64,000 nucleotides of DNA from Botryllus schlosseri (GCA_051294905.1 CM119372.1:32366001-32430000), one strand, 5' to 3'. Shown: positions 1 through 64,000, counted from the first letter of the stretch. Made by a program: numbers and translations. The notes: generated by a model from the letters alone, not told the origin.

Positions 1-2533
1 TATAAGAGGGAGCTGATGTTATGAACATTGTCAATTCGGTGGCAGTGTTCCGCCTTTGCACGTTCGATCTTAACTTGGGGCAACAAAGGCTATGATACCT
101 GATGCAGCAGAATAGAATAATTATTGCTCCCAATACAAGGGCCACGGGAATCAAAATGGAGCCCAAGCCAGAAAAGAGACCGCTCAATCCCTTTCCAAAT
201 AGGCCTCCTATTGCTCCAAGACCCTTCTGTAATAGGTGGCCCGCGCCCTTTCCGACCGATTCTATCAAACTTCCGGCCCCATCTGCCATTCCTTCTATCG
301 TTTTGCCGAAGTTCTCCATGAACTCTCTCCCCCCGGCAAATTCGAAGGGTTTTACCGATACATTTTCATAGCGCCAGTCGGACATATTCACGAACACACT
401 TCGGTTTAGGTCCTTTCTCCATACTTGTATGCTCAGGTCTATTTTATGCTGAGCTTGGTCCAGACGAAGGCGATTTGCCCGGAGTTGGTTCCCGATGTCA
501 TGTGTAGAGTTCTCGTAAGCGTCCCTATAGGCGACGAACTGCTGAGCCCATTCTTGTACCCGCAGTGTCCCCCTCCGGATTTGCGTACGATATATCTTGG
601 TAGAGTCAAATATTGACTTGCCGGTCAAATTGGCCAATTCCTGCATGACCAACCGATCGATGGCAAGTTCAGCTTCGCTCAACTCTTTAAAACTCTGGAA
701 CTGGGCGAGATCGTTGGTCGCCTGTCGTAGTATCATTTGGCGATTTCTCTCCATCATCTTCTGCATCCACACAAGTCGTTTGTCTGTTAGTGATGCCCTA
801 ACCTCCATACCGGCTACCAATTTGTCCAGTTTTTGTTGTTGCGCCGATTGAATCTGGGAGAGTTCATTAATCTTTTTCCCTAACTCGGTCGATCGTTGCG
901 TAGCTTGGAGCATTCTATCATTGATTTGATCTCCCAAATCTTCAGTTACTTTGTATAGTTCATCGGCGACGGTCGCCACGACAGCCACGGTTGCTATAGT
1001 GGCAAAGAGAAGAAAGAGCATTCCAAAGAACCGCCTGTGTCGACGTTTTTTATTTCTTATCAGTCCGCGGCCTAACAAATCCCCCTTTATTTCTATTGGC
1101 CCCCCTGGAAAACGGGGTCGGTTTCTCTCGGGGTCGAAATGTATTTGGTCCCAAAAGGCTGCTTTTAGTTCTGGTCCACCGACGGCATCCCGACAGATGT
1201 CCTCTGCGGTCATCACCCTTTTCTGGCAGTCCTCATCGGACCTTGTCATGGAGGGATGAGTCACCCATATGGGCATAATGTTGTAAGGCGAGCGCGGCCT
1301 GCTCGGGAGCCCATCGAATAAACTATTCCATTCGAAGCCTTGGTCGTCACGACCTTCCCAATTTGGGAACGATGCTTGTACCCATCGTATTCTTCGGGGA
1401 AAATTTGTAGTGGGCAAATCCCCCCACGTACTGTTATTCCTGATTGGCCACAGATTGCAGGAAGGTGGGTGGGCCATTTTGAAGCTTTTACGTTCGTAGG
1501 CCTCCCGTAGATGTTCGTAGCGCTCCTGGGTGATCAGTCCCGCCGTAGCCCGGCAATTAAACATAGGATGGTGGTGGCGTTCCCACGCGGAGTCCGGGCG
1601 AATGACATCTATTTCCTGTATTATGATATCTGCCTGGCTTGGTTCCAAGGCGGAAACCACTCCCGAAATCTTGCAAGAGATACAGATACCGTCTGAGCCT
1701 GGTAATGACGACACAAGGCGCTTGGGGTTTTCGTTAGGGTTTTTCCAATCGTAGGAAGACGAATAAAATTTAATCGATACTACTTTGTGCGGCCAGCAAT
1801 GTGCAAAGCTGGAGCTGCTGGCATTATACCTGTTATCCTGGTCCACTTTGGTCCAGTTCCATGTTCCCATCTCCAAACGCTCCGTACGGCAAACTGACCT
1901 CACTGCCGAGAAGCTCGCGAAAGCTCGCAACATGACAAGTTTAAACTTAGTCATCGCCATCAGGGTACCATTGACTTGGCCATTCACCAAGGCCTCCCTC
2001 AAGTCCCATCTATCCCTAGCGGCGTCCCAAGTCTCGCTCCAAAACCACTGTATCCTGACGTCATTCCCTATCGGACGTACGAATATCGTCTCCTGGTTCA
2101 GCACAGCGAAGGACAGGTTCGGTGAAATCTGACCCAGTCGTCGTTGGCAAAGGCAAGTGCGCTCAAAGTCCCGCACCTGTGACCAATATCGTCCTCGTGG
2201 AAATGCCATTTGTTGCAACGAAACCCGTTCAGCGACCACGTACCCAAAGGATTCACTGCGAAACAATTCCGGCCGACGATATGCGTGCCTTTTTCCCGTT
2301 TTATTGAAGATACTCATTATGTCGTAATCTTCCCATTGTGTCTCGTTGAGAACCACCCAATTCTCTGGCAACGAACCGTTCAGTTCACCCAATTTCCCTT
2401 GGGTAAAAGTTCGTCCCCTATTTGCTACAATATTTGTGGGTCCGTGCATGCCGTCCGCCGTCGTAGGCAGCATGCGATCAAGTGTGCAGCCGATACCAAG
2501 AGTGATAAAAAGAAGATAAACAAAGTCGTCCAT
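1..2533 (-). CDS. Viral-type class I membrane fusion (envelope) glycoprotein, at least 844 aa; C-terminus runs off the window
   Basis: Manual translation from ATG 2533 finds no stop down to base 2. N-terminal signal-like MDDFVYLLFITLGIGC; about 14 N-x-S/T sequons; polybasic site RNKKRRHRR (1057-1031) followed by FFGMLFLLFATIATVAVVATVA (1030-965); long helical Q/E/K/L-rich segment; Gly-rich amphipathic stretch; TM SILIPVALVLGAIIILF; tail CCIRYHSLCCPK. Confidence 0.88.
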   Translation of the reverse strand, partial: MDDFVYLLFITLGIGCTLDRMLPTTADGMHGPTNIVANRGRTFTQGKLGELNGSLPENWVVLNETQWEDYDIMSIFNKTGKRHAYRRPELFRSESFGYVVAERVSLQQMAFPRGRYWSQVRDFERTCLCQRRLGQISPNLSFAVLNQETIFVRPIGNDVRIQWFWSETWDAARDRWDLREALVNGQVNGTLMAMTKFKLVMLRAFASFSAVRSVCRTERLEMGTWNWTKVDQDNRYNASSSSFAHCWPHKVVSIKFYSSSYDWKNPNENPKRLVSSLPGSDGICISCKISGVVSALEPSQADIIIQEIDVIRPDSAWERHHHPMFNCRATAGLITQERYEHLREAYERKSFKMAHPPSCNLWPIRNNSTWGDLPTTNFPRRIRWVQASFPNWEGRDDQGFEWNSLFDGLPSRPRSPYNIMPIWVTHPSMTRSDEDCQKRVMTAEDICRDAVGGPELKAAFWDQIHFDPERNRPRFPGGPIEIKGDLLGRGLIRNKKRRHRRFFGMLFLLFATIATVAVVATVADELYKVTEDLGDQINDRMLQATQRSTELGKKINELSQIQSAQQQKLDKLVAGMEVRASLTDKRLVWMQKMMERNRQMILRQATNDLAQFQSFKELSEAELAIDRLVMQELANLTGKSIFDSTKIYRTQIRRGTLRVQEWAQQFVAYRDAYENSTHDIGNQLRANRLRLDQAQHKIDLSIQVWRKDLNRSVFVNMSDWRYENVSVKPFEFAGGREFMENFGKTIEGMADGAGSLIESVGKGAGHLLQKGLGAIGGLFGKGLSGLFSGLGSILIPVALVLGAIIILFCCIRYHSLCCPKLRSNVQRRNTATELTMFITSAPSY

Positions 2534-2565
2534 GGAGGCGGAATAGGCGGTACTGGCCACTGCAT
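2425..2565 (-). CDS. Putative 46-aa single-pass membrane microprotein overlapping the glycoprotein start
   Basis: ATG at 2565, stop 2427-2425: MQWPVPPIPPPWTTLFIFFLSLLVSAAHLIACCLRRRTACTDPQIL (Pro-rich N-terminus, hydrophobic span, CC, RRR). Shorter than any ORF in the supplied track. Confidence 0.35.
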   Translation of the reverse strand: MQWPVPPIPPPWTTLFIFFLSLLVSAAHLIACCLRRRTACTDPQIL

Positions 2566-2646
2566 AAGTTAGTTAATAACACGTCGTAGGCCTAATTTAT
2601 TGTCTGTAAAAACATAAACAAAACGTCCGTTTATGGCGGGCCACGA

Positions 2647-3636
2647 TTACAATTGCAGCTCCGCGGGCGAAGCGTCGTATTCATTGAGACTGTACTGTGG
2701 GTCGTTCCTAATAGTGCGTAGTAGTGCCAGAAAGCGATCACTTTTCTGGTGCTGGCGTTTCCATAACCACTCTCCTACGTAATCGGCCAGTAGATGGCGC
2801 GCTAGACCTCGGGATCGATGTAAATGATATTTCAGCGAGCTCCAACAAGCCTCCACGTCATTGGTAAACACCCCTTGCGGGCTTTTAAAGCCAGAGCTAT
2901 GATCTACAACCCCATGCGTATAGCCCCGTCCCCAGCTTTCTATGCCTTTATAAGAAGGGTATGCATCGGTCAGGATCGTTGATCCGCTGGCTACGTTTTC
3001 TTCAATGAGCTTCCGAAACACTGCCGCCGTTCTGTCAGCAGTTATTTCGATGAAGATTTTCCCTGTATTTCTATCTATTCCCCCAAACGCCCATATGGCT
3101 TTCCTGGCTGATCGTCCAGAAGAGGCGGCCTTGCGTTTCGCTAGATGGGTCTCGTCAAGAACAACACAGCCTTCAACGCCCCCCAAAGGACGTTTATTCC
3201 TCTGGAATTCAGCCGCGCAGATCTTTCGCAAGCGGCCACTCCACACGACCGTTGAACGCTTACTAACTTCGGCTTCATGGGCTATTTGGGTCTGTAGAGC
3301 GTCATGGGCCCAAAAATAGATCAGCATCAATAATTTAGGAAGTTCCACATTGCTATTTGCAAACAGTGAATACTTGCGTATAGTCGCCGTAGTATGGCAA
3401 GGTGTGCACCGCCATCTAATCCCATCGTCTACAGTAGACGTCGTCTCTTCCTTCATTTCTCTAAGGCATTTTTTACACTTCATTTTTCGCACCAACAGTC
3501 CGTGCTCCCTTAGAAACCGTACGCAATCACCTACGTTGAGCAACGCTCCCGCTTGTATTAATCGCAATACGTTGTATGTCCTTCCATGAACGCCTGCGTA
3601 AGCAAAATGGTAGAGCGTGTGCAGGTTTTCGGACAT
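2647..3636 (-). CDS. Merlin / IS1595 (ISXO2-like) DDE transposase, intact 329 aa
   Basis: N-terminal zinc ribbon CKKC...CTPC; catalytic motifs VVLDET, WAFGGIDRNTG, ILTDAYPSY, HGVVDHS, TNDVEACW typical of IS1595/Merlin; AATAAA on the minus strand at 2601-2596 after the stop. Confidence 0.93.
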   Translation of the reverse strand: MSENLHTLYHFAYAGVHGRTYNVLRLIQAGALLNVGDCVRFLREHGLLVRKMKCKKCLREMKEETTSTVDDGIRWRCTPCHTTATIRKYSLFANSNVELPKLLMLIYFWAHDALQTQIAHEAEVSKRSTVVWSGRLRKICAAEFQRNKRPLGGVEGCVVLDETHLAKRKAASSGRSARKAIWAFGGIDRNTGKIFIEITADRTAAVFRKLIEENVASGSTILTDAYPSYKGIESWGRGYTHGVVDHSSGFKSPQGVFTNDVEACWSSLKYHLHRSRGLARHLLADYVGEWLWKRQHQKSDRFLALLRTIRNDPQYSLNEYDASPAELQL

Positions 3637-4309
3637 CTACTGTCTCTTGCGAGGAAGCGCCGTTTTTTTCAACAGCGCGTCACTAGACGGTTCTCTCCTA
3701 TTTGTTTCCGTGCTATGGTTAGGCAGGTTGGATAATTCACCTGCTCCGTATGAGACCTAGTGAATTAAAAACCCTTATTTTCAATGTTCATGTACAGCAC
3801 ACATCGTATTAAAGTGAAACATTCACACTCCTATCACACACCCACAATTCAGTGTTCTACACTGGCGCCGTCTAAATTTACGGCGCTTACTTCACTTGAA
3901 CCGAAATTTCAATAAATTGCAGCTCCATTACGGTGGCGTTCTGAAGGAAATGGCTGCGGCCAAAAATCTTTGTTCGTTTTTACCTTCAATTTGAGACCAC
4001 ATCATTTTTAGAGCGCAGTGCCCCTTTAACCATACATTTGCTCAGCGACAGATTGATGATCGCATTGCTTGTTTTATCATTGGTGCGTCCGCATTTCATG
4101 CCGCGTTGACGGTGAGCAGAGGTGACAATCAACGTCGAGACGATAGTCCATGAACATATAATTTATGATGATATATTTCACATAAAACAAAGTTTGTAGA
4201 AATGCACACGACATAAATGCTTGACTGAATTGAATATACGCGAACCGAGCTATATGCATCGGAATCATGATTGGTCCTAATCGTTCAATTTCGATATATT
4301 GGCTTAAAG

Positions 4310-35089: not shown

Positions 35090-38000
35090 TTAGAGTTGGT
35101 TTTTATGCCTTCTCCAATATCCATGATCTGTTTTAACAATGTACACAACACGTCCCAGTATTTCCGTCACCACTCCATCAGCCCACTTTGGTCCGCGTCG
35201 GTAACTTCGAGCGCAAACCGAAGAACCAATGTCGAAATGAGTAACGGATTGTCCAGGCGTAACGGGCTTCGATTTGTCGAAGGGCGAGCACAAACTTAAC
35301 AAATTTCGCGGCTGCCGACCATGTAAAATCTCAGCAGGCGTTTTCCAGTCTATGCCCGGGTGCGATGCACATCGGTACGTAGCGAGAAGTGTTTGGAGCG
35401 CGAAGTTAATATCTTTTCCCCCGTCGCAATTTTTTATCAATCCAGCTTTTAGAGTCTGGACGAAACGCTCCGCTTCCCCGTTCGAGACAGTATGAAAAGA
35501 CGGTGATATGGCTGATTGCCAAATTCGAACAAAACGTATCGAATTCATTCGATGTGAATTGCGGCCCGCCATTCGTGACAATTGTTATGGGCAAGCCTTC
35601 GATAGAAAAGACTTCCCTCAAAGCGTTGACTACACATAAGGTTGTGGTAGATCCGACATTCATTACTTTAACGAAAGGATATTTCGAATGCGCATCGACG
35701 ATGACAAGAAACATTTTATTTTCTATTGGACCTGCCAAATCCAAGTGAATCAATTCAAAGCTTTCAGACGTTTTGGGCCATTCGCGATACTGACGATCAG
35801 GCGCTTTCATTACTTTACAGCAAGCGTCGCAACTCTTCACGAGATTTTCAATGTCGCGATTGTTGGAAGGCCATGCGATGTAACGTCGAGCCATCTGCTT
35901 CATTTTCGCGATACCTCAATGTCCTTGGTGCAACAATGAAAAGGCTCGCGAGCGAAGTGACTGCGGAATTACTACGCGCTGAAAACCATCAATATTGAGC
36001 ATGACTACGTCTTCGTGCAGAGAAAGCGAAAGTTTGCGAGTCGAAAACCAAGAAAAACCATCAATGTGCGTCTTTGGATTCCAGTTACCATGAGTGACAG
36101 ATAATTTTACTAGTTTCATAGTTTTGTCCTTCAGCGTCGCGTCGCGAATTTCATTGCGAGTTAACGGTAAGCCATCGAATGCCATATTAATAGCGTGAAC
36201 GATCTCCGCGTTTTCACGAATTTCCAGTTCGTCAAACTCAGGGTCTGGACCCTTTGGTAAGCGAGATAAACCGTCAGCGTTTCCGTGCTGATTAGTCGGT
36301 TTATAGCGTATGTCATATTGATAAGCCATGAGCGTTAGTGCCCATCGCTGCTGCGCTGTAATCACGGGAATTTTCTTGTCCGGCAAAAAAATAGCTAAAA
36401 GCGGTTTGTGGTCCGTCACGAGCGTAAATTTTCTACCATATAAAAATTGACGAACTTTACTGACTCCGTAGGCTAAATGATTGACAGAGCTTCCTTCTCT
36501 ATTTGCGAGTAGGATTTTTGCGAATCGGAAAGCGTTTTCGATGCGTGCGCGATCGGTCTCTCTTCGCCATTGTGCTCGATTGGGAGGACAGCGCCGATTC
36601 CGAATTGAGAAGCATCCGTTGACAAATGAGATGCTTGTTTACATCATAATGAGCTAACTGCGTAGCGTCGATTACGTCGTTTTTGAGAATGCGAAAACCT
36701 GCGTCACAGTCCGTATTCCAAATGAATTTCGCGTCTTTTTGAAGAAGGTGATATAACGAAGCGGCTTTATTCGTAAAATTAGGAATAAACTCGCGATTAT
36801 TATATTTGACTTTGCCTGTAGCTGGCGAACATCCCGAGGTTTAGGCAACTGTTTGATTGCTTCGACGGATTTGTTGGATGGGCGTTTGCCATCCTTGTCA
36901 ATTATGTGACCACGATACTCGATACTACTTTTGAAAAATTCACATTAAGGGAAGTTGATGGTGAGACCGTATTCGGTGAGGCGCTCAAAAAGTAGCAATA
37001 AGTTGCGAAAATGATCGCGCTCAGCAGTGCCAGTTACGATTATGTCATCGATAAAACTAGCAACACCGGGTAAGCCGGCGATCATGGCATCAACACAGCG
37101 TTGAAAATTTGCAGGACTAGATGCGACTCCGAAACACATGCGTTGATAACGGAATAGACTGAATTGCGTGATGATGACACACAAATTCTTCGCATCATCA
37201 TCTAATTCTAGCTGAAAATAAGCATCGGCAAGATCAATTTTCGTTAAAATACAACCACCCTGTAACTTATGAAGAATTTCATCTAAGGAGGGCAGGGGAT
37301 GTTGATCTATTTGAATTTGTTGATTCAATGCTCTGAAATCACCACAAATGCGTACTGATCCATTAGATTTAGTGACGGCAACAATTGGTGCTGCCCAATC
37401 ACTGTAGTTCAGTGGTTCTCAACCTTTTTTTAGACACGCCTCCCTTTATGATAGTGAAGAATTTCGCGTCCCCCTTATCGTCTTCGCGCCCCCCTTATCG
37501 TCATATCACAAAATCCAGCTGGGATGCTAGCAACCCCAACAGATTGTTTGATGACACGGAAGGTTATGACTGTTGATGAGAGAATCAAAAATATGAAATT
37601 CGGTCTATATATAGAGAAAACCGCGTGAATTGGAGGTAAATCGCGCAGAGCGCGAAAAAATTATACAGTTGACCGCTTCTTCGCGCCCCCTTCAGGTGCT
37701 TTCACGCCCCACAATGGGGCGCGCCCCCAGGTTGAGAACCACTGCTGTAGTTGATGGTTCGAGGATACCTTGATTGACTAATCTATTCAATTCGGGGTGA
37801 ACAGTGATTTGTCTTGCGAAAGGCAAAGGACGTGGCTTGTTGAATACGGGCTTGGCATTAGGTTTCAAGTGAATAGTCACCTTTGTCTTGGTGCATCGTC
37901 CTAATACACTAGAGAAAACGGAGGGAAATTTTGACTGAAAAGATACCAGCTTGTCGTTCGAATCACTATGTCAATAGTATTACATGATTGCGACTTGACC

Positions 38001-45145: not shown

Positions 45146-46475
45146 GGGGAGATGTGGTACCGATGGATCAAAAATTGCAAAATGATCTCTGGCCCTCAAA
45201 TCTTCAGCCGAGAATAACGGATCTTTTGCTGTCTCAACACTTTGATACAAGGTCTACCTATCGAGGGCATTTACATGGATCTCCTACTTTTCAAAAAAGA
45301 TTCATAAACGTTTAAAAGTTGTTGCTCGAACGTATCATATGTCCCCACCCGGTGGGTCCAATGGCACACGACCATGGGACCTATGAGACATACGCTCAAA
45401 ACTAAAATTTTTCAACTTGTTATGTTGTGTACCATAATCAAAGCTGCAGCATGCCAATGAAGAATGTTTTGTTGCCACGTACAAGAATAAAATAGATTTT
45501 ATCAACTCAAATGTTGGGATAAAATCACGTTTTGATTTCCTCCGAAACTTACAAAATTAATGCCACATACATATTACCGGAAGATCGACATTTTGATTTT
45601 CAAATAGGGCAAATTGGCAAAATCTTTCCTCGCATACAAAAACATTCGACGTGCGCGAGCTATGGGGTCTCTCACAGATGTTTTTTGTTTTTGGGGGTGT
45701 AAACTAAATTTAGATCGACATGTACATTTGTCTTTGTAACCTTCAACACGAACAAACCAGCAATCAATTTTATTGTGAACTCTAGGGCTTGTATCAGGCT
45801 ATATAATGGCACCTATTATTTTTTTCAGTACATTCCTTGAATGGAATTTTTTTCGATTCATGTACAAAATTCGTAGAGTGGGGACCGATGATAGAATAGC
45901 CAAATCAAGCAAAGTAATCCAGCATACTAATCATGAAACAAATGAAACATGCCTACGTACAGAAAATCTTTATGTAATAATTGCATATGATGTTTTATCG
46001 CTATAACGAGATCTTTGGAAGTCACACGGTCGATTTTCGGGCAATATGTATGTACCCGCAAATTTATAAGTCCGAGCCTAAATCGAAACGTGATTTTATG
46101 ACAACATTTGAGTTAATATTTATTTTAGTTTTTGACGGTTGCGACCAAACATTCTTCTTTGGCTTGCTGTATAGCTTAGATTATAAAACTGAGCATAAAA
46201 AGTTGTCACATCTGAGTTTTTTAGGGTATATGTGTCATAGGTCCCCGGGTCGTGTGCCATTGGACCCACCGGGTGGGGACCCATGACACGTTCGAGCAAC
46301 AAATTTCAAACGTCCATAAATATTTTTCGAAAAGACGGATATTCATGTATTTGAGCGCGATAGGTAGAGCTTGTATCAAAGTGCTGAGCCAGCAAAAGAT
46401 CTGCTGTTTTCGGCTGAACATTTTGGGGCCAGCGATCATTTTCCAATTTTTGATCCATCGGTACCACATCTCCCC
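45146..46475. mobile_element. TA-flanked non-autonomous DNA element with long TIRs (GGGGAGATGTGGTACCGATG)
   Basis: Inverted arms of ~400 bp, TA on both sides; further partial copies at ~46490-46960 and ~62745-63510. Confidence 0.75.
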
Positions 46476-62719: not shown

Positions 62720-64000
62720 TTATCTACTAGTGTAGCTGATGATTAGGGGAGATGTGGTACCGATGGATCACTGGGACCGAAAATACTTTGAAACTTCTCT
62801 ATGATAATTCCATGATCACACTCCGTGAACTTGTCTACAATTGCATTCTGGCAAAATCTTTCCTTACATACAAAAAAATTCGACGTGCGCGAGCTATGGG
62901 GTCTCTCACAGATGTTTTTTGTTTTGGGGGGTGTAAAGTAAATTTAGATCGACATATGCATTTTTCTTTGTAACCTTCAACACGAAAAAACCAGCAATCA
63001 TTTTTATTGTGAAGTGTAGGGCTTGTATCAGGCTATTTAATGACACCTATTATGTTTTTCAGTACTTTCCTTGAGTGGAATTTTTTTCGATTCATGTATA
63101 AAATTCGTAGGGTGGGGACCGATGATACAATAGCCAAATCAAGCAAAAAATCAAGCATACTAATCATGAAATAAATGAAACTTGCCTACGTACAGAAAAT
63201 CTTTATGTAATAACTGCATATGATGTTTAATCGCTAAAACGAGGTATTTGGAAGTCACACTGTCGATTTACGGGCAATATGTATGTACCCTCAAATTTAT
63301 AAGTCCGAGCCTAAATCGAAACGTGATTTTATGACAACATTTGAGTTAATACTTATTCTATCTTTGGACGGTTGCGATCAAACATTCTTCTTTGGCTTGC
63401 TGTAGCTTAGATTATAATACTGAGCTAGAAAAGTTGTCACACCTGAGTTTTTTGGGTATATGTGTCATAGGTCCCCGGGTCGTGTGCCATTGGACCCACC
63501 GGGTGGGGAAGAAGAGTGCGCAGAAGCAAGATCATCACTAGCACGCGCATAAAAAAACTTCTCTCTGAGTGTTACGCATTAAATGGATGACATTAACGTT
63601 ATTTTGCCACCCATTATAATTAACGTGGCTCGACGAGCCGTCAGTTGTCTTCAGACAAGTTTCATTGCGGTTCTAAACTCTGGAATGTAAAGCAAGACTG
63701 GTCTTGGAGACCTGCTGGTTTTTCTTTCTTTTTAACAGTAGTCAGTTTCTTGCTAACTCATTTGGGGATAAGTTTTTTGATAACGTTCCATTTCCCCCAT
63801 GCGTTTCATGTTCATCCATCGTTTTTTTTAAGTTCATTAGTATTTATGGATTATAAATATTATTTGACTAAAAATGTGTTTTTAGTCCATTGCACCCCAT
63901 CTTCCGCTAATGTGTAATGTGCAGTGACAGTGCGAAGTCATGCACTAGGGATTCGTAACCTCTGCTCTAAACACACTATGTTGCGAGCTCAGATAGAGCG

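Follow-up and report, generated by a model that had tools for sequence, protein, structure and literature searches.

Retrovirus-like genes, an envelope-like glycoprotein and a Merlin transposase within one pair of transposon ends in Botryllus schlosseri

Introduction

The classification of mobile elements separates those that are copied through RNA from DNA elements that move by cut and paste. Among the latter, the Merlin superfamily, the properties of which Feschotte is said to have set out in 2004, is reportedly IS1595-like, and the Merlins described so far are small elements with a single gene. DIRS-like retroelements use a tyrosine recombinase, have inverted terminal repeats and have been proposed to pass through a circular DNA intermediate, while the Caulimoviridae are non-enveloped plant viruses of ~7-9 kb without an active integration enzyme. 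Teratorn, a 180-kb fusion of piggyBac with an alloherpesvirus, has been termed the first case of a DNA virus joined to a cut-and-paste transposon; a fusion of a reverse-transcribing element with a transposase is not among the cases in the part of the review drawn on here (PMC10175614).

The element described below resembles Teratorn-like fusions in that the terminal inverted repeats (TIRs) and target-site duplication (TSD) of a cut-and-paste transposon enclose a viral-type gene set, an arrangement that in Teratorn leads to chromosomal integration and growth in copy number. It differs in that the transposase is of Merlin rather than piggyBac type, the viral part is reverse-transcribing rather than herpesviral and the measured size is 40-60 kb rather than 180 kb (PMC10175614). 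No precedent for gag, pol and env-like genes joined to a Merlin transposase was found in the literature searched.

A transposase-glycoprotein pair at the edge of the window

The window, i.e. the whole 64,000-nucleotide stretch that was analysed (GCA_051294905.1 CM119372.1:32366001-32430000), presents the following features at its left edge.

1..2533, minus strand: gp1, an intact envelope-like type I glycoprotein gene, 844 of its 854 codons in the window
2534..2646, minus strand: 113-bp spacer from the Tpase1 stop codon to the gp1 ATG
2647..3636, minus strand: Tpase1, an intact Merlin/IS1595-type DDE transposase of 329 aa (ORF call and Pfam)
3637..3902, minus strand: left subterminal region, ending in a terminal inverted repeat
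3881-3902: the terminal inverted repeat, GGTTCAAGTGAAGTAAGCGCCG on the minus strand
3903..3910: 8-bp target-site duplication, GAAATTTC
3903..4028: one arm of a palindromic MITE-like host repeat, outside the element, which inserted here

The initial annotation had noted an intact transposase and an intact glycoprotein gene, co-oriented and 113 bp apart with no TIR separating them, and the coordinates of both ORFs and of the spacer, which holds no TIR, agree with this. In the window, the gp1 ORF is open over 2..2560 (minus strand) with its first ATG at 2533, and its stop lies 31 bases to the left of base 1, for a full length of 854 aa. The pair had also been placed in a compact GC-richer block. 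GC is indeed 0.46-0.51 in the first four 1-kb bins and at least 0.47 in just three of the remaining 60, but the block ends at 3902 rather than at 3961. The TIR proposed there (GGCCGCAGCCATTTCC, 3946-3961) and its TSD (AAAAATCT) belong to the palindromic MITE-like host repeat and not to the element, and have to be replaced by a true terminus at 3902 and a true TSD at 3903-3910. Similarity to another copy (C9, 97.06% over 2754 bp) ends exactly at 3902, and in RNA-seq reads that derive from host-repeat copies without the insertion the match breaks at 3902/3903 and goes on into the far-end flank of the element. These reads represent paralogous empty sites and confirm the TSD of the window copy, which runs from 3902 leftward to ~-55672 (minus strand); GAAATTTC flanks both ends, its second copy lying ~59.6 kb leftward beside the other terminus.

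Tpase1 scores 45.1 bits with PF12762 (DDE_Tnp_IS1595; cut-off 27, E 1.4e-11), a domain also found in the Tpase1 of a second full-length copy (C5) and precomputed in the relatives P0071-P0075, and its N-terminus carries a CxxC...CxxC zinc finger. The element encodes a second, divergent Merlin paralogue with ~40% identity, and D161, D224 and E262, which we take to be the predicted catalytic triad, are invariant in all six aligned Tpase1 and Tpase2 sequences. The transposase has a single named relative, that of the ascidian Styela clava.

The layout of gp1 is, as predicted from its sequence, that of a class I fusion protein: a signal peptide, an internal polybasic site (KKRRHRR, residues 495-501) directly followed by a hydrophobic segment, long helices (503-555, 562-637 and 666-710 in a predicted model of mean pLDDT 68) and a C-terminal membrane anchor, with 14 NxS/T sequons and a Cys-rich tail in addition. 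The polybasic site, hydrophobic peptide, long helices and anchor are kept across homologues of 32-74% identity, 52 relatives being found among 1.84 billion representatives. No Pfam family matches gp1, and a Foldseek comparison of this model (pLDDT 68) with PDB and BFVD returned no solved or predicted viral fusogen at E ≤0.001. The VIA wide search yielded just generic coiled coils (Z ≤6.4, residues 503-709), and an Atlas feature search placed gp1 closest to the CoV S2, HA and F clusters (0.88-0.90), which is a lead only.

A family of large elements with common ends

In the 495-Mb genome, gp1 occurs at 54 places and Tpase1 gives 122 scored matches. By coordinates, a transposase match in the same orientation lies no more than ~400 bp upstream of gp1 at 53 of these 54 places (33-97% protein identity), so the pairing is not due to chance, and the co-occurrence that the initial annotation had envisaged extends to dozens of independent sites. 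Pol, described below, is in register with the pair at 39 of its 42 places. An ordinary Merlin that came to lie beside an env gene belonging to the host or to some other element, a possibility which the initial annotation had itself named as the scenario that would overturn its reading, has nothing in its favour beyond the single locus as first seen. It is refuted, and left with practically no probability, by the recurrence of the pair down to 33% identity, by one TSD that encloses the whole unit and by the 10 distinct flanks among the 11 left ends examined.

Duplications of 8 bp flank both ends in all three full-length copies examined, namely the window copy, C5 (40,140 bp; ACGAATTT on both sides) and C14 (GAAAAATT on both sides). 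The TIRs are short, imperfect and of Merlin type (16 of 24 positions agree by eye); their motif has 69 matches versus 10 for a control, and the 263-bp left end was found in 20 copies at identities of at least 81%. Being bounded by Merlin-type TIRs and an 8-bp TSD, the element inserts into the chromosome by DDE transposition. The pair is thus, as had been supposed, the terminal module of something larger, ~59.6 kb here and 40.1 kb in relatives measured end to end. Its PF12762 transposase, with zinc finger and conserved D, D and E, is shared with other Merlins, as are the 8-bp TSD, the MITE-like deletion derivatives and short TIRs that begin with GG, but the element differs from them in its size of 40-60 kb, its two transposase paralogues and at least 18 selected ORFs that include gag, pol and env-like genes.

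The family comprises dozens of copies of several architectures and sizes, together with many short deletion derivatives. Identity is 99% or more among seven gp1 copies and 98.96% over 7.9 kb between C5 and C14; the family has thus, as claimed earlier, been active recently. Across all 18 ORFs dN/dS ranges from 0.05 to 0.6, and every one of them is, by this measure, under purifying selection.

Gene content

Capsid and replication genes had been expected to the left of the window. What lies there is of retroviral type: a Gag-like ORF followed by Pol. The former is a putative Gag, named for its position and for a single zinc knuckle that narrowly passes the threshold (zf-CCHC, 21.8 bits; cut-off 20.8); no capsid domain was recognised in it. 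Pol is open in the -1 frame relative to Gag, with which it shares 43-67 nt, and follows the slippery site A_AAA_AAC. This site is correctly phased in both lineages checked (C5 and window copies) and has been kept between lineages ~22% apart in protein. Pol reads putative protease-RT-RNaseH-Tpt1, with RVT_1 (1e-17, 64.8 bits), RT_RNaseH_2 (2e-19, 69.9 bits) and a C-terminal Tpt1 (2e-10). The motifs LADTGS, GIGG and IVGLKW are readable at the N-terminus, where a Pfam protease match is absent, and YIDD and TDAS are readable as well. An rve-type integrase (PF00665) is absent from all frames scanned with Pfam, although it is present in 9 of 15 more distant Pol relatives. An RT-RNaseH preceded by a protease (putative in the present Pol) and without integrase is also what the Caulimoviridae have, and the best solved relatives of Pol in the PDB are 8r0s ('Enzymatic polyprotein', 2.3e-18), foamy virus Pr125Pol and Ty3. 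No movement or coat protein family was found in the element.

In addition, the element carries gp2 (a membrane glycoprotein related to gp1), the second transposase and several small ORFs. Pfam matches among 19 long ORFs include LRR_8 (2e-53), BIR (1e-58) with RING and UQ_con (8e-48), and the LRR, IAP and E2 genes lie inside the TIRs. An ORF-poor stretch extends over 8 kb in C5 and 27 kb in the window copy, which holds nested repeats and two interrupted small ORFs.

This inventory bears on the possibility that a large DNA virus (herpes-, nudi- or irido-like) fused with Merlin, Teratorn-style, and became endogenised, the reverse transcriptase genes being a nested passenger. Large DNA viruses typically have IAP, E2 and LRR among their accessory genes, and the 40-60 kb size and the two glycoproteins would suit such an origin as well. 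However, in Pfam scans of the 19 long ORFs, the two Gag pieces and 93 short frames (34 in C5 and 59 in the window copy), families of DNA polymerases, helicases, packaging ATPases and capsids were all absent, which is also where the earlier expectation fails. Herpesvirus families were likewise absent from the Pfam scans, and recombinase families from those of the 19 long ORFs and the C5 short frames. Furthermore, the RT module, without ends or a TSD belonging to it alone, is enclosed by the common TSD in each of the three full-length copies examined, and we regard a DNA-virus origin as very improbable.

The compact form

Some copies have a different, compact architecture, Gag-Pol-TAG-Tpase1-gp1-gp2-TIR (from coordinates and copy L038), which spans at least 13.8 kb and in which the transposase occupies the position where retroviruses have their integrase. 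Tpase1 is in the frame of Pol and has no ATG before its conserved N-terminus. By coordinates, the two share a frame in three of four compact copies (C16 is out of frame), and the single in-frame TAG between them is sequence-checked in the C12 copy only; no stable RNA structure was found 3' of it (z = +0.94). The left end of this form was searched for and not found. A 253-bp end of the compact form is present in at least 40 copies, and some derivative ends retain just the first ~60 transposase codons. Both architectures would follow one cyclic gene order, Gag-Pol-Tpase1-gp1-gp2, in which the TIR junction is differently placed, and such a difference would be compatible with a circular or concatemeric intermediate.

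A retrovirus-like element or a transposon with retroviral cargo?

We favour, with a probability of about 0.6, the view that this is a chimeric element (~59.6 kb here), retrovirus- or pararetrovirus-like, in which Merlin has taken the place of the integrase. Gag, Pol and the glycoproteins would form enveloped particles for spread from cell to cell or horizontally, and IAP, E2 and LRR might modulate the host cell. The transposase would insert a DNA form that is probably circular, with its TIRs abutting, and after integration the same ends would also let the element spread by ordinary cut and paste and let deletion derivatives be mobilised. We infer the particles, the circular intermediate and infectivity. 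Against this reading, the whole element would have to be reverse-transcribed with no visible cis apparatus, be it LTRs, terminal direct repeats or a DIRS-like internal complementary region. Self-comparison of the 40,140-bp C5 element revealed no LTRs or terminal direct repeats, and there is no internal match of at least 13 nt to either terminal 80 nt. LTRs would be unneeded if a circular DNA genome were replicated through a terminally redundant RNA, as in Caulimoviridae. Also counting against the favoured reading are the size of the element and the zero RNA-seq count given below, the lack of a fusogen fold match for gp1, the naming of Gag from one zinc knuckle and its position, the absence of a stable RNA structure behind the TAG and of a left end for the compact form, and the ORF-poor stretch; nor did particles, circles or full-length transcripts come to light.

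The same absences would be expected if the element were a Merlin DNA transposon of giant size that moves by cut and paste, its retroviral gag-pol-env and host genes being captured cargo. All copies would then arise by DNA transposition, and the retroviral genes would ride along or have some side function such as vesicle-mediated transfer of RNA or protein. The TIRs, the 8-bp TSDs and the many derivatives with internal deletions are marks of class II elements, the size is beyond that of known retroviral genomes (to our knowledge, 40-60 kb exceeds any known reverse-transcribing genome) and in four bulk RNA-seq runs (6-13% of each run sampled) no read matched window 1-3640 at ≥95% identity. Nevertheless, mere cargo is difficult to reconcile with purifying selection on Gag, Pol, gp1 and gp2 in every lineage compared (dN/dS 0.12-0.59) or with the maintenance of the -1 frameshift site between divergent lineages. 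It also sits poorly with a compact form that retains just Gag-Pol-Tpase1-gp1-gp2 with the transposase in frame behind Pol and hence looks like an integrated replication unit. On balance, cargo seems an unlikely explanation, albeit one of some weight.

A retrovirus-like element that uses Merlin as its integrase would have several partial counterparts. With env-bearing LTR retroelements and retroviruses (Ty3/Metaviridae, errantiviruses, Oikopleura Tor and Retroviridae) it shares a CCHC Gag-like protein, then a -1 RT-RNaseH, here with a putative protease, behind A_AAA_AAC, then an integration enzyme and an env-like glycoprotein with polybasic site and hydrophobic peptide. It differs from them in having TIRs and an 8-bp TSD in place of LTRs, no rve integrase, a C-terminal Tpt1 on Pol, a far larger size and many accessory genes. 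DIRS-like elements likewise combine a Ty3-related RT/RNaseH with a non-retroviral integration enzyme and inverted rather than direct terminal repeats, but here the enzyme is a TSD-making DDE transposase, an env-like gene is present and the internal complementary region was not found. More tentatively, at somewhat below even odds, the family might represent a new virus lineage, reverse-transcribing and hosted by a marine invertebrate chordate. Its members would have an envelope, a circular DNA stage like that of pararetroviruses and genomes of ~40-60 kb, as measured in these copies, in which a Merlin DDE transposase translated behind Pol replaces the integrase and TIRs replace LTRs. Such a lineage would provide a third independent solution to integration for reverse-transcribing elements, after the rve integrase and the tyrosine recombinase. 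It would also be the first case of an element that belongs to class I and class II at once.

Within one pair of ends, this family holds the full protein sets of both classes, under selection and recently active. If the retroviral genes serve spread, the integrase can be replaced by an unrelated DDE transposase, reverse-transcribing elements can reach tens of kb and gather host-control genes as large DNA viruses do, and the Teratorn principle, by which a virus becomes heritable through a transposon, extends to viruses of retro-type. The family also lends itself, as natural material, to work on how Merlin transposases cope with cargo of great length and on the role of the Tpt1 RNA 2'-phosphotransferase domain on Pol. 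Elsewhere in the window, an RT-like fragment lies at 36813-37358.

The transposase–glycoprotein pair and its linkage

At the left edge of the window, the Merlin/IS1595 transposase (Tpase1) and the envelope-like glycoprotein (gp1) were found as follows.

3636..2647, minus strand: Tpase1 ORF, 329 aa, with PF12762
2533 (ATG) to 31 bases past the left edge, minus strand: gp1 ORF, 854 aa, by ORF reading

The match of Tpase1 to PF12762 (IS1595/Merlin DDE domain) scores 45.1 bits against a Pfam cut-off of 27, while gp1 matched no Pfam family. The intact pair in a GC-richer block, as described in the initial annotation, is real: the spacer is 113 bp and GC content is 0.46–0.51 in the first four 1-kb bins of the window, with 0.47 being reached in only 3 of the 60 remaining bins. 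In the genome (495 Mb, 219 contigs), there are 122 scored matches for Tpase1 and 65 for gp1. The latter group into 54 places, 53 of which have, from match coordinates, a co-oriented transposase match within ~400 bp upstream, the sole exception being a fragment at C7:19937508. The same pair was read directly at three divergent loci (gp1 identity 32–34%), two of them with both genes whole and the third with a split pair. The proposed association of transposase and env thus recurs across the genome, and a single chance juxtaposition, the alternative raised alongside it, is excluded because of this recurrence at 53/54 gp1 places and at the three divergent loci. A search of 5.8 billion proteins returned five transposase relatives, the only named one coming from the ascidian Styela clava (uncharacterised protein, 43% identity).

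Ends of the element and insertion sites

Four related copies and the 60 kb adjoining the window on its left (negative positions) were compared for ends. The copies on contigs C5 and C14 are collinear between two sharp points 40.1 kb apart, each copy being flanked on both sides by its own 8-bp duplication (ACGAATTT and GAAAAATT) and ending in imperfect terminal inverted repeats (TIRs; GGTACTTGTGAAATAAGTGCCCGG and GGAACTAGTGCAGTATATGCCCGC). Collinearity of the window copy with these two reaches about -55300. This copy terminates with ...GGCGTATAGTGCATGTGATCC on the far left (about -55672) and, on the minus strand, with GGTTCAAGTGAAGTAAGCGCCG at 3902; GAAATTTC follows each terminus. Two independent checks of the 3902 terminus agree. 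A 97.06% match to the sister copy on C9 over 2754 bp ends exactly there. RNA-seq reads derived from host repeats without the insertion part from the window sequence at 3902/3903 and pass straight into the flank of the far end; with GAAATTTC present only once, they serve as paralogous empty sites. The TIR and target-site duplication (TSD) suggested initially (GGCCGCAGCCATTTCC and AAAAATCT) fall outside the element, within a palindromic repeat that has its second arm, in inverted orientation, past the far end. This insertion site is a MITE-like repeat (~500 bp) bounded on either side by TTAA, and other copies of it are transcribed (reads at 3781–4060 in 4/4 RNA-seq runs).

3903–4028: arm of the host repeat
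about -55681 to -56050: mirrored arm, ~59.7–60.0 kb to the left

Among 11 left ends examined, there are 10 different flanks, two of the ends belonging to a segmental duplication. The latter concerns two copies 50 kb apart (L008 and L009, G000:C7:15.84 and 15.89 Mb) that have flank and TSD (GAACTTTT) in common, and which are not two insertions.

Gene content of the large form

In the 40.1-kb C5 copy, a single strand carries all the long ORFs, and no DNA-virus hallmarks were found in the frames scanned.

Gene content of the large form (copies of 40–60 kb), from the C5 copy; the gp2 entry gives a range of lengths
Tpase1: PF12762
gp1: no family
gp2: 1103–1160 aa, type I membrane protein
ORF-poor stretch: ~8 kb, 34 short frames, no convincing family
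LRR protein: LRR_8, 2e-53
Tpase2: second Merlin transposase, ~40% identity to Tpase1
IAP: three BIR domains and RING (BIR 1e-58)
E2: UQ_con, 8e-48
Small ORFs: about eight, no firm family
Gag-like ORF: 938 aa, CCHC zinc knuckle (21.8 bits, cut-off 20.8)
Pol: 1106 aa, RVT_1, RT_RNaseH_2 and C-terminal Tpt1 domain

Pol has N-terminal LADTGS...GIGG...IVGLKW motifs, a reverse transcriptase (RT) with YIDD and an RNase H with TDAS; among solved structures it is closest to 8r0s 'Enzymatic polyprotein', foamy virus Pol and Ty3. Its frame is -1 relative to Gag, the end of which it overlaps by 43–67 nt. In the C5 lineage as well as that of the window copy, the Gag stop is preceded at ~15 nt by A_AAA_AAC in proper phase. 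Neither half of Gag matched PDB sequences below E 0.03. Just one close Pol relative was found among the 5.8 billion proteins. A Tpt1/KptA RNA 2'-phosphotransferase domain is fused at the Pol C-terminus (residues about 947–1096 of Pol at L032:1327-4644; E 2e-10); kept in the sole outside relative, P0002 (45% identity), it is to our knowledge present in no other retroelement. No integrase family was detected by Pfam in any frame scanned, and integrase is present in 9 of 15 more distant Pol relatives. Searches for LTRs or terminal direct repeats and for a DIRS-like internal complementary region found none. Pol occurs at 42 places, 39 of them in register with the Tpase1–gp1 pair (from match coordinates), and Gag has 95 genome matches. 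Since the distance from Tpase1 to Pol ranges from about 11 to 70 kb, element size varies widely. The element is a unit with an apparently complete retroviral-type gag-pro-pol and env-like genes, devoid of integrase and LTRs, that was inserted by Merlin-type transposition.

In the window copy, the ORF-poor region extends over 27 kb, with a Pfam match in one of 59 short frames: this match, a spectrin repeat (E 7.5e-8), lies on the plus strand, opposite to the element, at L011:3459-3854 (about -6541 to -6146). Nested insertions or captured pieces are probable in this region, as its dispersed repeats also occur beside the C5 copy. Elsewhere, at locus L018, a 188-aa ORF (L018:7115-7678) shows a sub-threshold Pfam match to Bcl-2 (E 0.044), and two further ORFs (L018:4770-5627 and L018:8882-9433) have weak sub-threshold matches to PWP3A-B_C (E 3e-5 and 0.013), which together with IAP hint at a possible anti-apoptosis gene set. 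Some 25 genes for E2 ubiquitin-conjugating enzymes, all intronless and 52–82% identical to the E2 of the element, form a tandem cluster at G000:C1:34.12–34.49 Mb and on contigs C148, C155 and C163. At least eight further dispersed E2 copies have identical scores (57%), as if borne by a different repeat. The element and its host may have exchanged E2 genes.

The glycoproteins

gp1 displays a signal peptide, 14 sequons and a single polybasic site, KKRRHRR (residues 495–501), directly followed by a hydrophobic stretch; a membrane anchor and a Cys-rich tail lie at its C-terminus. This layout, from signal peptide to anchor, is kept among homologues at 32–74% identity. A profile search of 1.84 billion representatives yielded 52 relatives, all unnamed, and the search of 5.8 billion proteins only one. 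An AF2 model built from seven sequences was unusable (pLDDT 31), while 48 sequences gave pLDDT 68, with three long helices predicted after the hydrophobic peptide and a confident N-terminal domain (about residues 50–480). Foldseek comparison of this model with PDB and BFVD returned nothing at E ≤0.001, the N-terminal domain being barely covered, and the wide VIA fold search returned generic coiled coils only, with residues ~50–480 again barely covered. The ~390 N-terminal residues of gp2 resemble the outer part of gp1 (BLASTP 2e-7). Neither glycoprotein matched PDB sequences below E 0.03, and there was no usable match for gp2 in the Atlas search. As no solved or predicted viral fusogen was matched, gp1 is labelled a putative 'class I-like fusogen' from its sequence layout, to which a language-model search adds a lead only.

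On a public metagenome contig (L039:2117-10967), a weak gp1 relative (P0070, whose cluster representative matches the gp1 profile at E 4.6e-4) directly follows a protease-RT-RNaseH Pol without integrase. This contig has no transposase match among ORFs of at least 120 aa, and neither LTRs nor TIRs were found on it.

A compact form

At six places, coordinates give the order Gag, Pol, Tpase1, gp1 and gp2.

Copies of the compact form, by coordinates
C1:24294023-24307812
C12:25761408-25775217
C3:611866-625757
C7:28282159-28299108
C16:20588672-20602484, minus strand
C3:30327755-30341555, minus strand

In one compact copy (L038), the right terminus (...GTGCACTAGTTCC) lies at most 480 bp past gp2, and the subterminal sequence is homologous to that following Pol in the large forms. 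E2 is absent near the compact copies, where searches for a left end (TSD-plus-TIR pattern and TIR motif) gave no match. At the C12 junction, the one examined at sequence level, Pol ends in ...MENMA and a single TAG, after which the same frame is open into the conserved N-terminus of Tpase1 with no ATG; by coordinates, Pol and Tpase1 are in the same frame in 3/4 compact copies, the exception being C16. Tpase1 might be made by readthrough of the Pol TAG, which no stable RNA structure follows (z = +0.94). In both the C5 copy (L016:5028-5171) and the compact C12 copy (L040), the conserved first ~48 residues of Tpase1 are encoded by an open frame that lacks an in-phase ATG; the window copy's own Tpase1 has an ATG start. 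Judging from these frames, ATG-less lineages may depend on readthrough, splicing or initiation at a non-AUG codon to express Tpase1.

Further architectures were noticed, such as a Gag-Pol preceded at ~1.5 kb by a left TIR and with neither Tpase1 nor gp1 in its vicinity, and a class of about a dozen copies in which the left TIR is 8–10 kb from a shortened Gag frame of 614–640 aa (examples of further architectures are G000:C16:624166-631928, C2:15288067-15299374 and C3:18170284-18181085).

Possible mechanism and novelty

In the favoured reading, the element is retrovirus- or pararetrovirus-like and its integration would have been taken over by the transposase; Gag and the glycoproteins would build enveloped particles, and IAP, E2 and LRR would act on the host cell. 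Large and compact forms have the cyclic order Gag-Pol-Tpase1-gp1-gp2 in common and differ in the position of the TIR junction; this is consistent with a circular or concatemeric DNA stage, which would also supply the terminal redundancy missing from the integrated form. Several points nevertheless count against a retrovirus-like element: cis-acting signals of reverse transcription went undetected, the element sizes are unprecedented, and RNA-seq showed zero reads on window 1–3640 in four runs (6–13% of each sampled). The main rival, a giant cut-and-paste transposon with retroviral cargo, is considered less likely. No description of an RT-bearing Merlin element was found in the full-text literature, a coverage that stops short of subscription journals and Repbase reports. 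A review (PMC10175614), in which no RT-bearing Merlin element was found, presents Teratorn as the first known case of a DNA virus fused to a cut-and-paste transposon.

Copies, activity and selection

Seven copies of gp1 share ≥99% identity, and the C5 and C14 copies show 98.96% identity over 7.9 kb. In comparisons with computable dS, dN/dS is 0.05–0.59 for all 18 ORFs and, since inserted copies decay neutrally, these low values point to selection while the lineages replicated. Identity between copies is mosaic, and the switch of the nearest copy to C5 from C14 on the left to C11 on the right indicates recombination. The window-type 263-bp end has 20 copies at ≥81%, several followed by only the first ~60 transposase codons, and the 253-bp end of the compact form has at least 40 at ≥87%. 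The window copy, 3% from its sister, with a stop in two small ORFs and repeats in common with unrelated flanks, is not among the youngest.

The window also contains an RT-like fragment 23% identical to Pol (36813–37358, minus strand). An unrelated repeated ORF, which flanks the C5 copy as well, is present three times (45163–46458 and 63300–63568).
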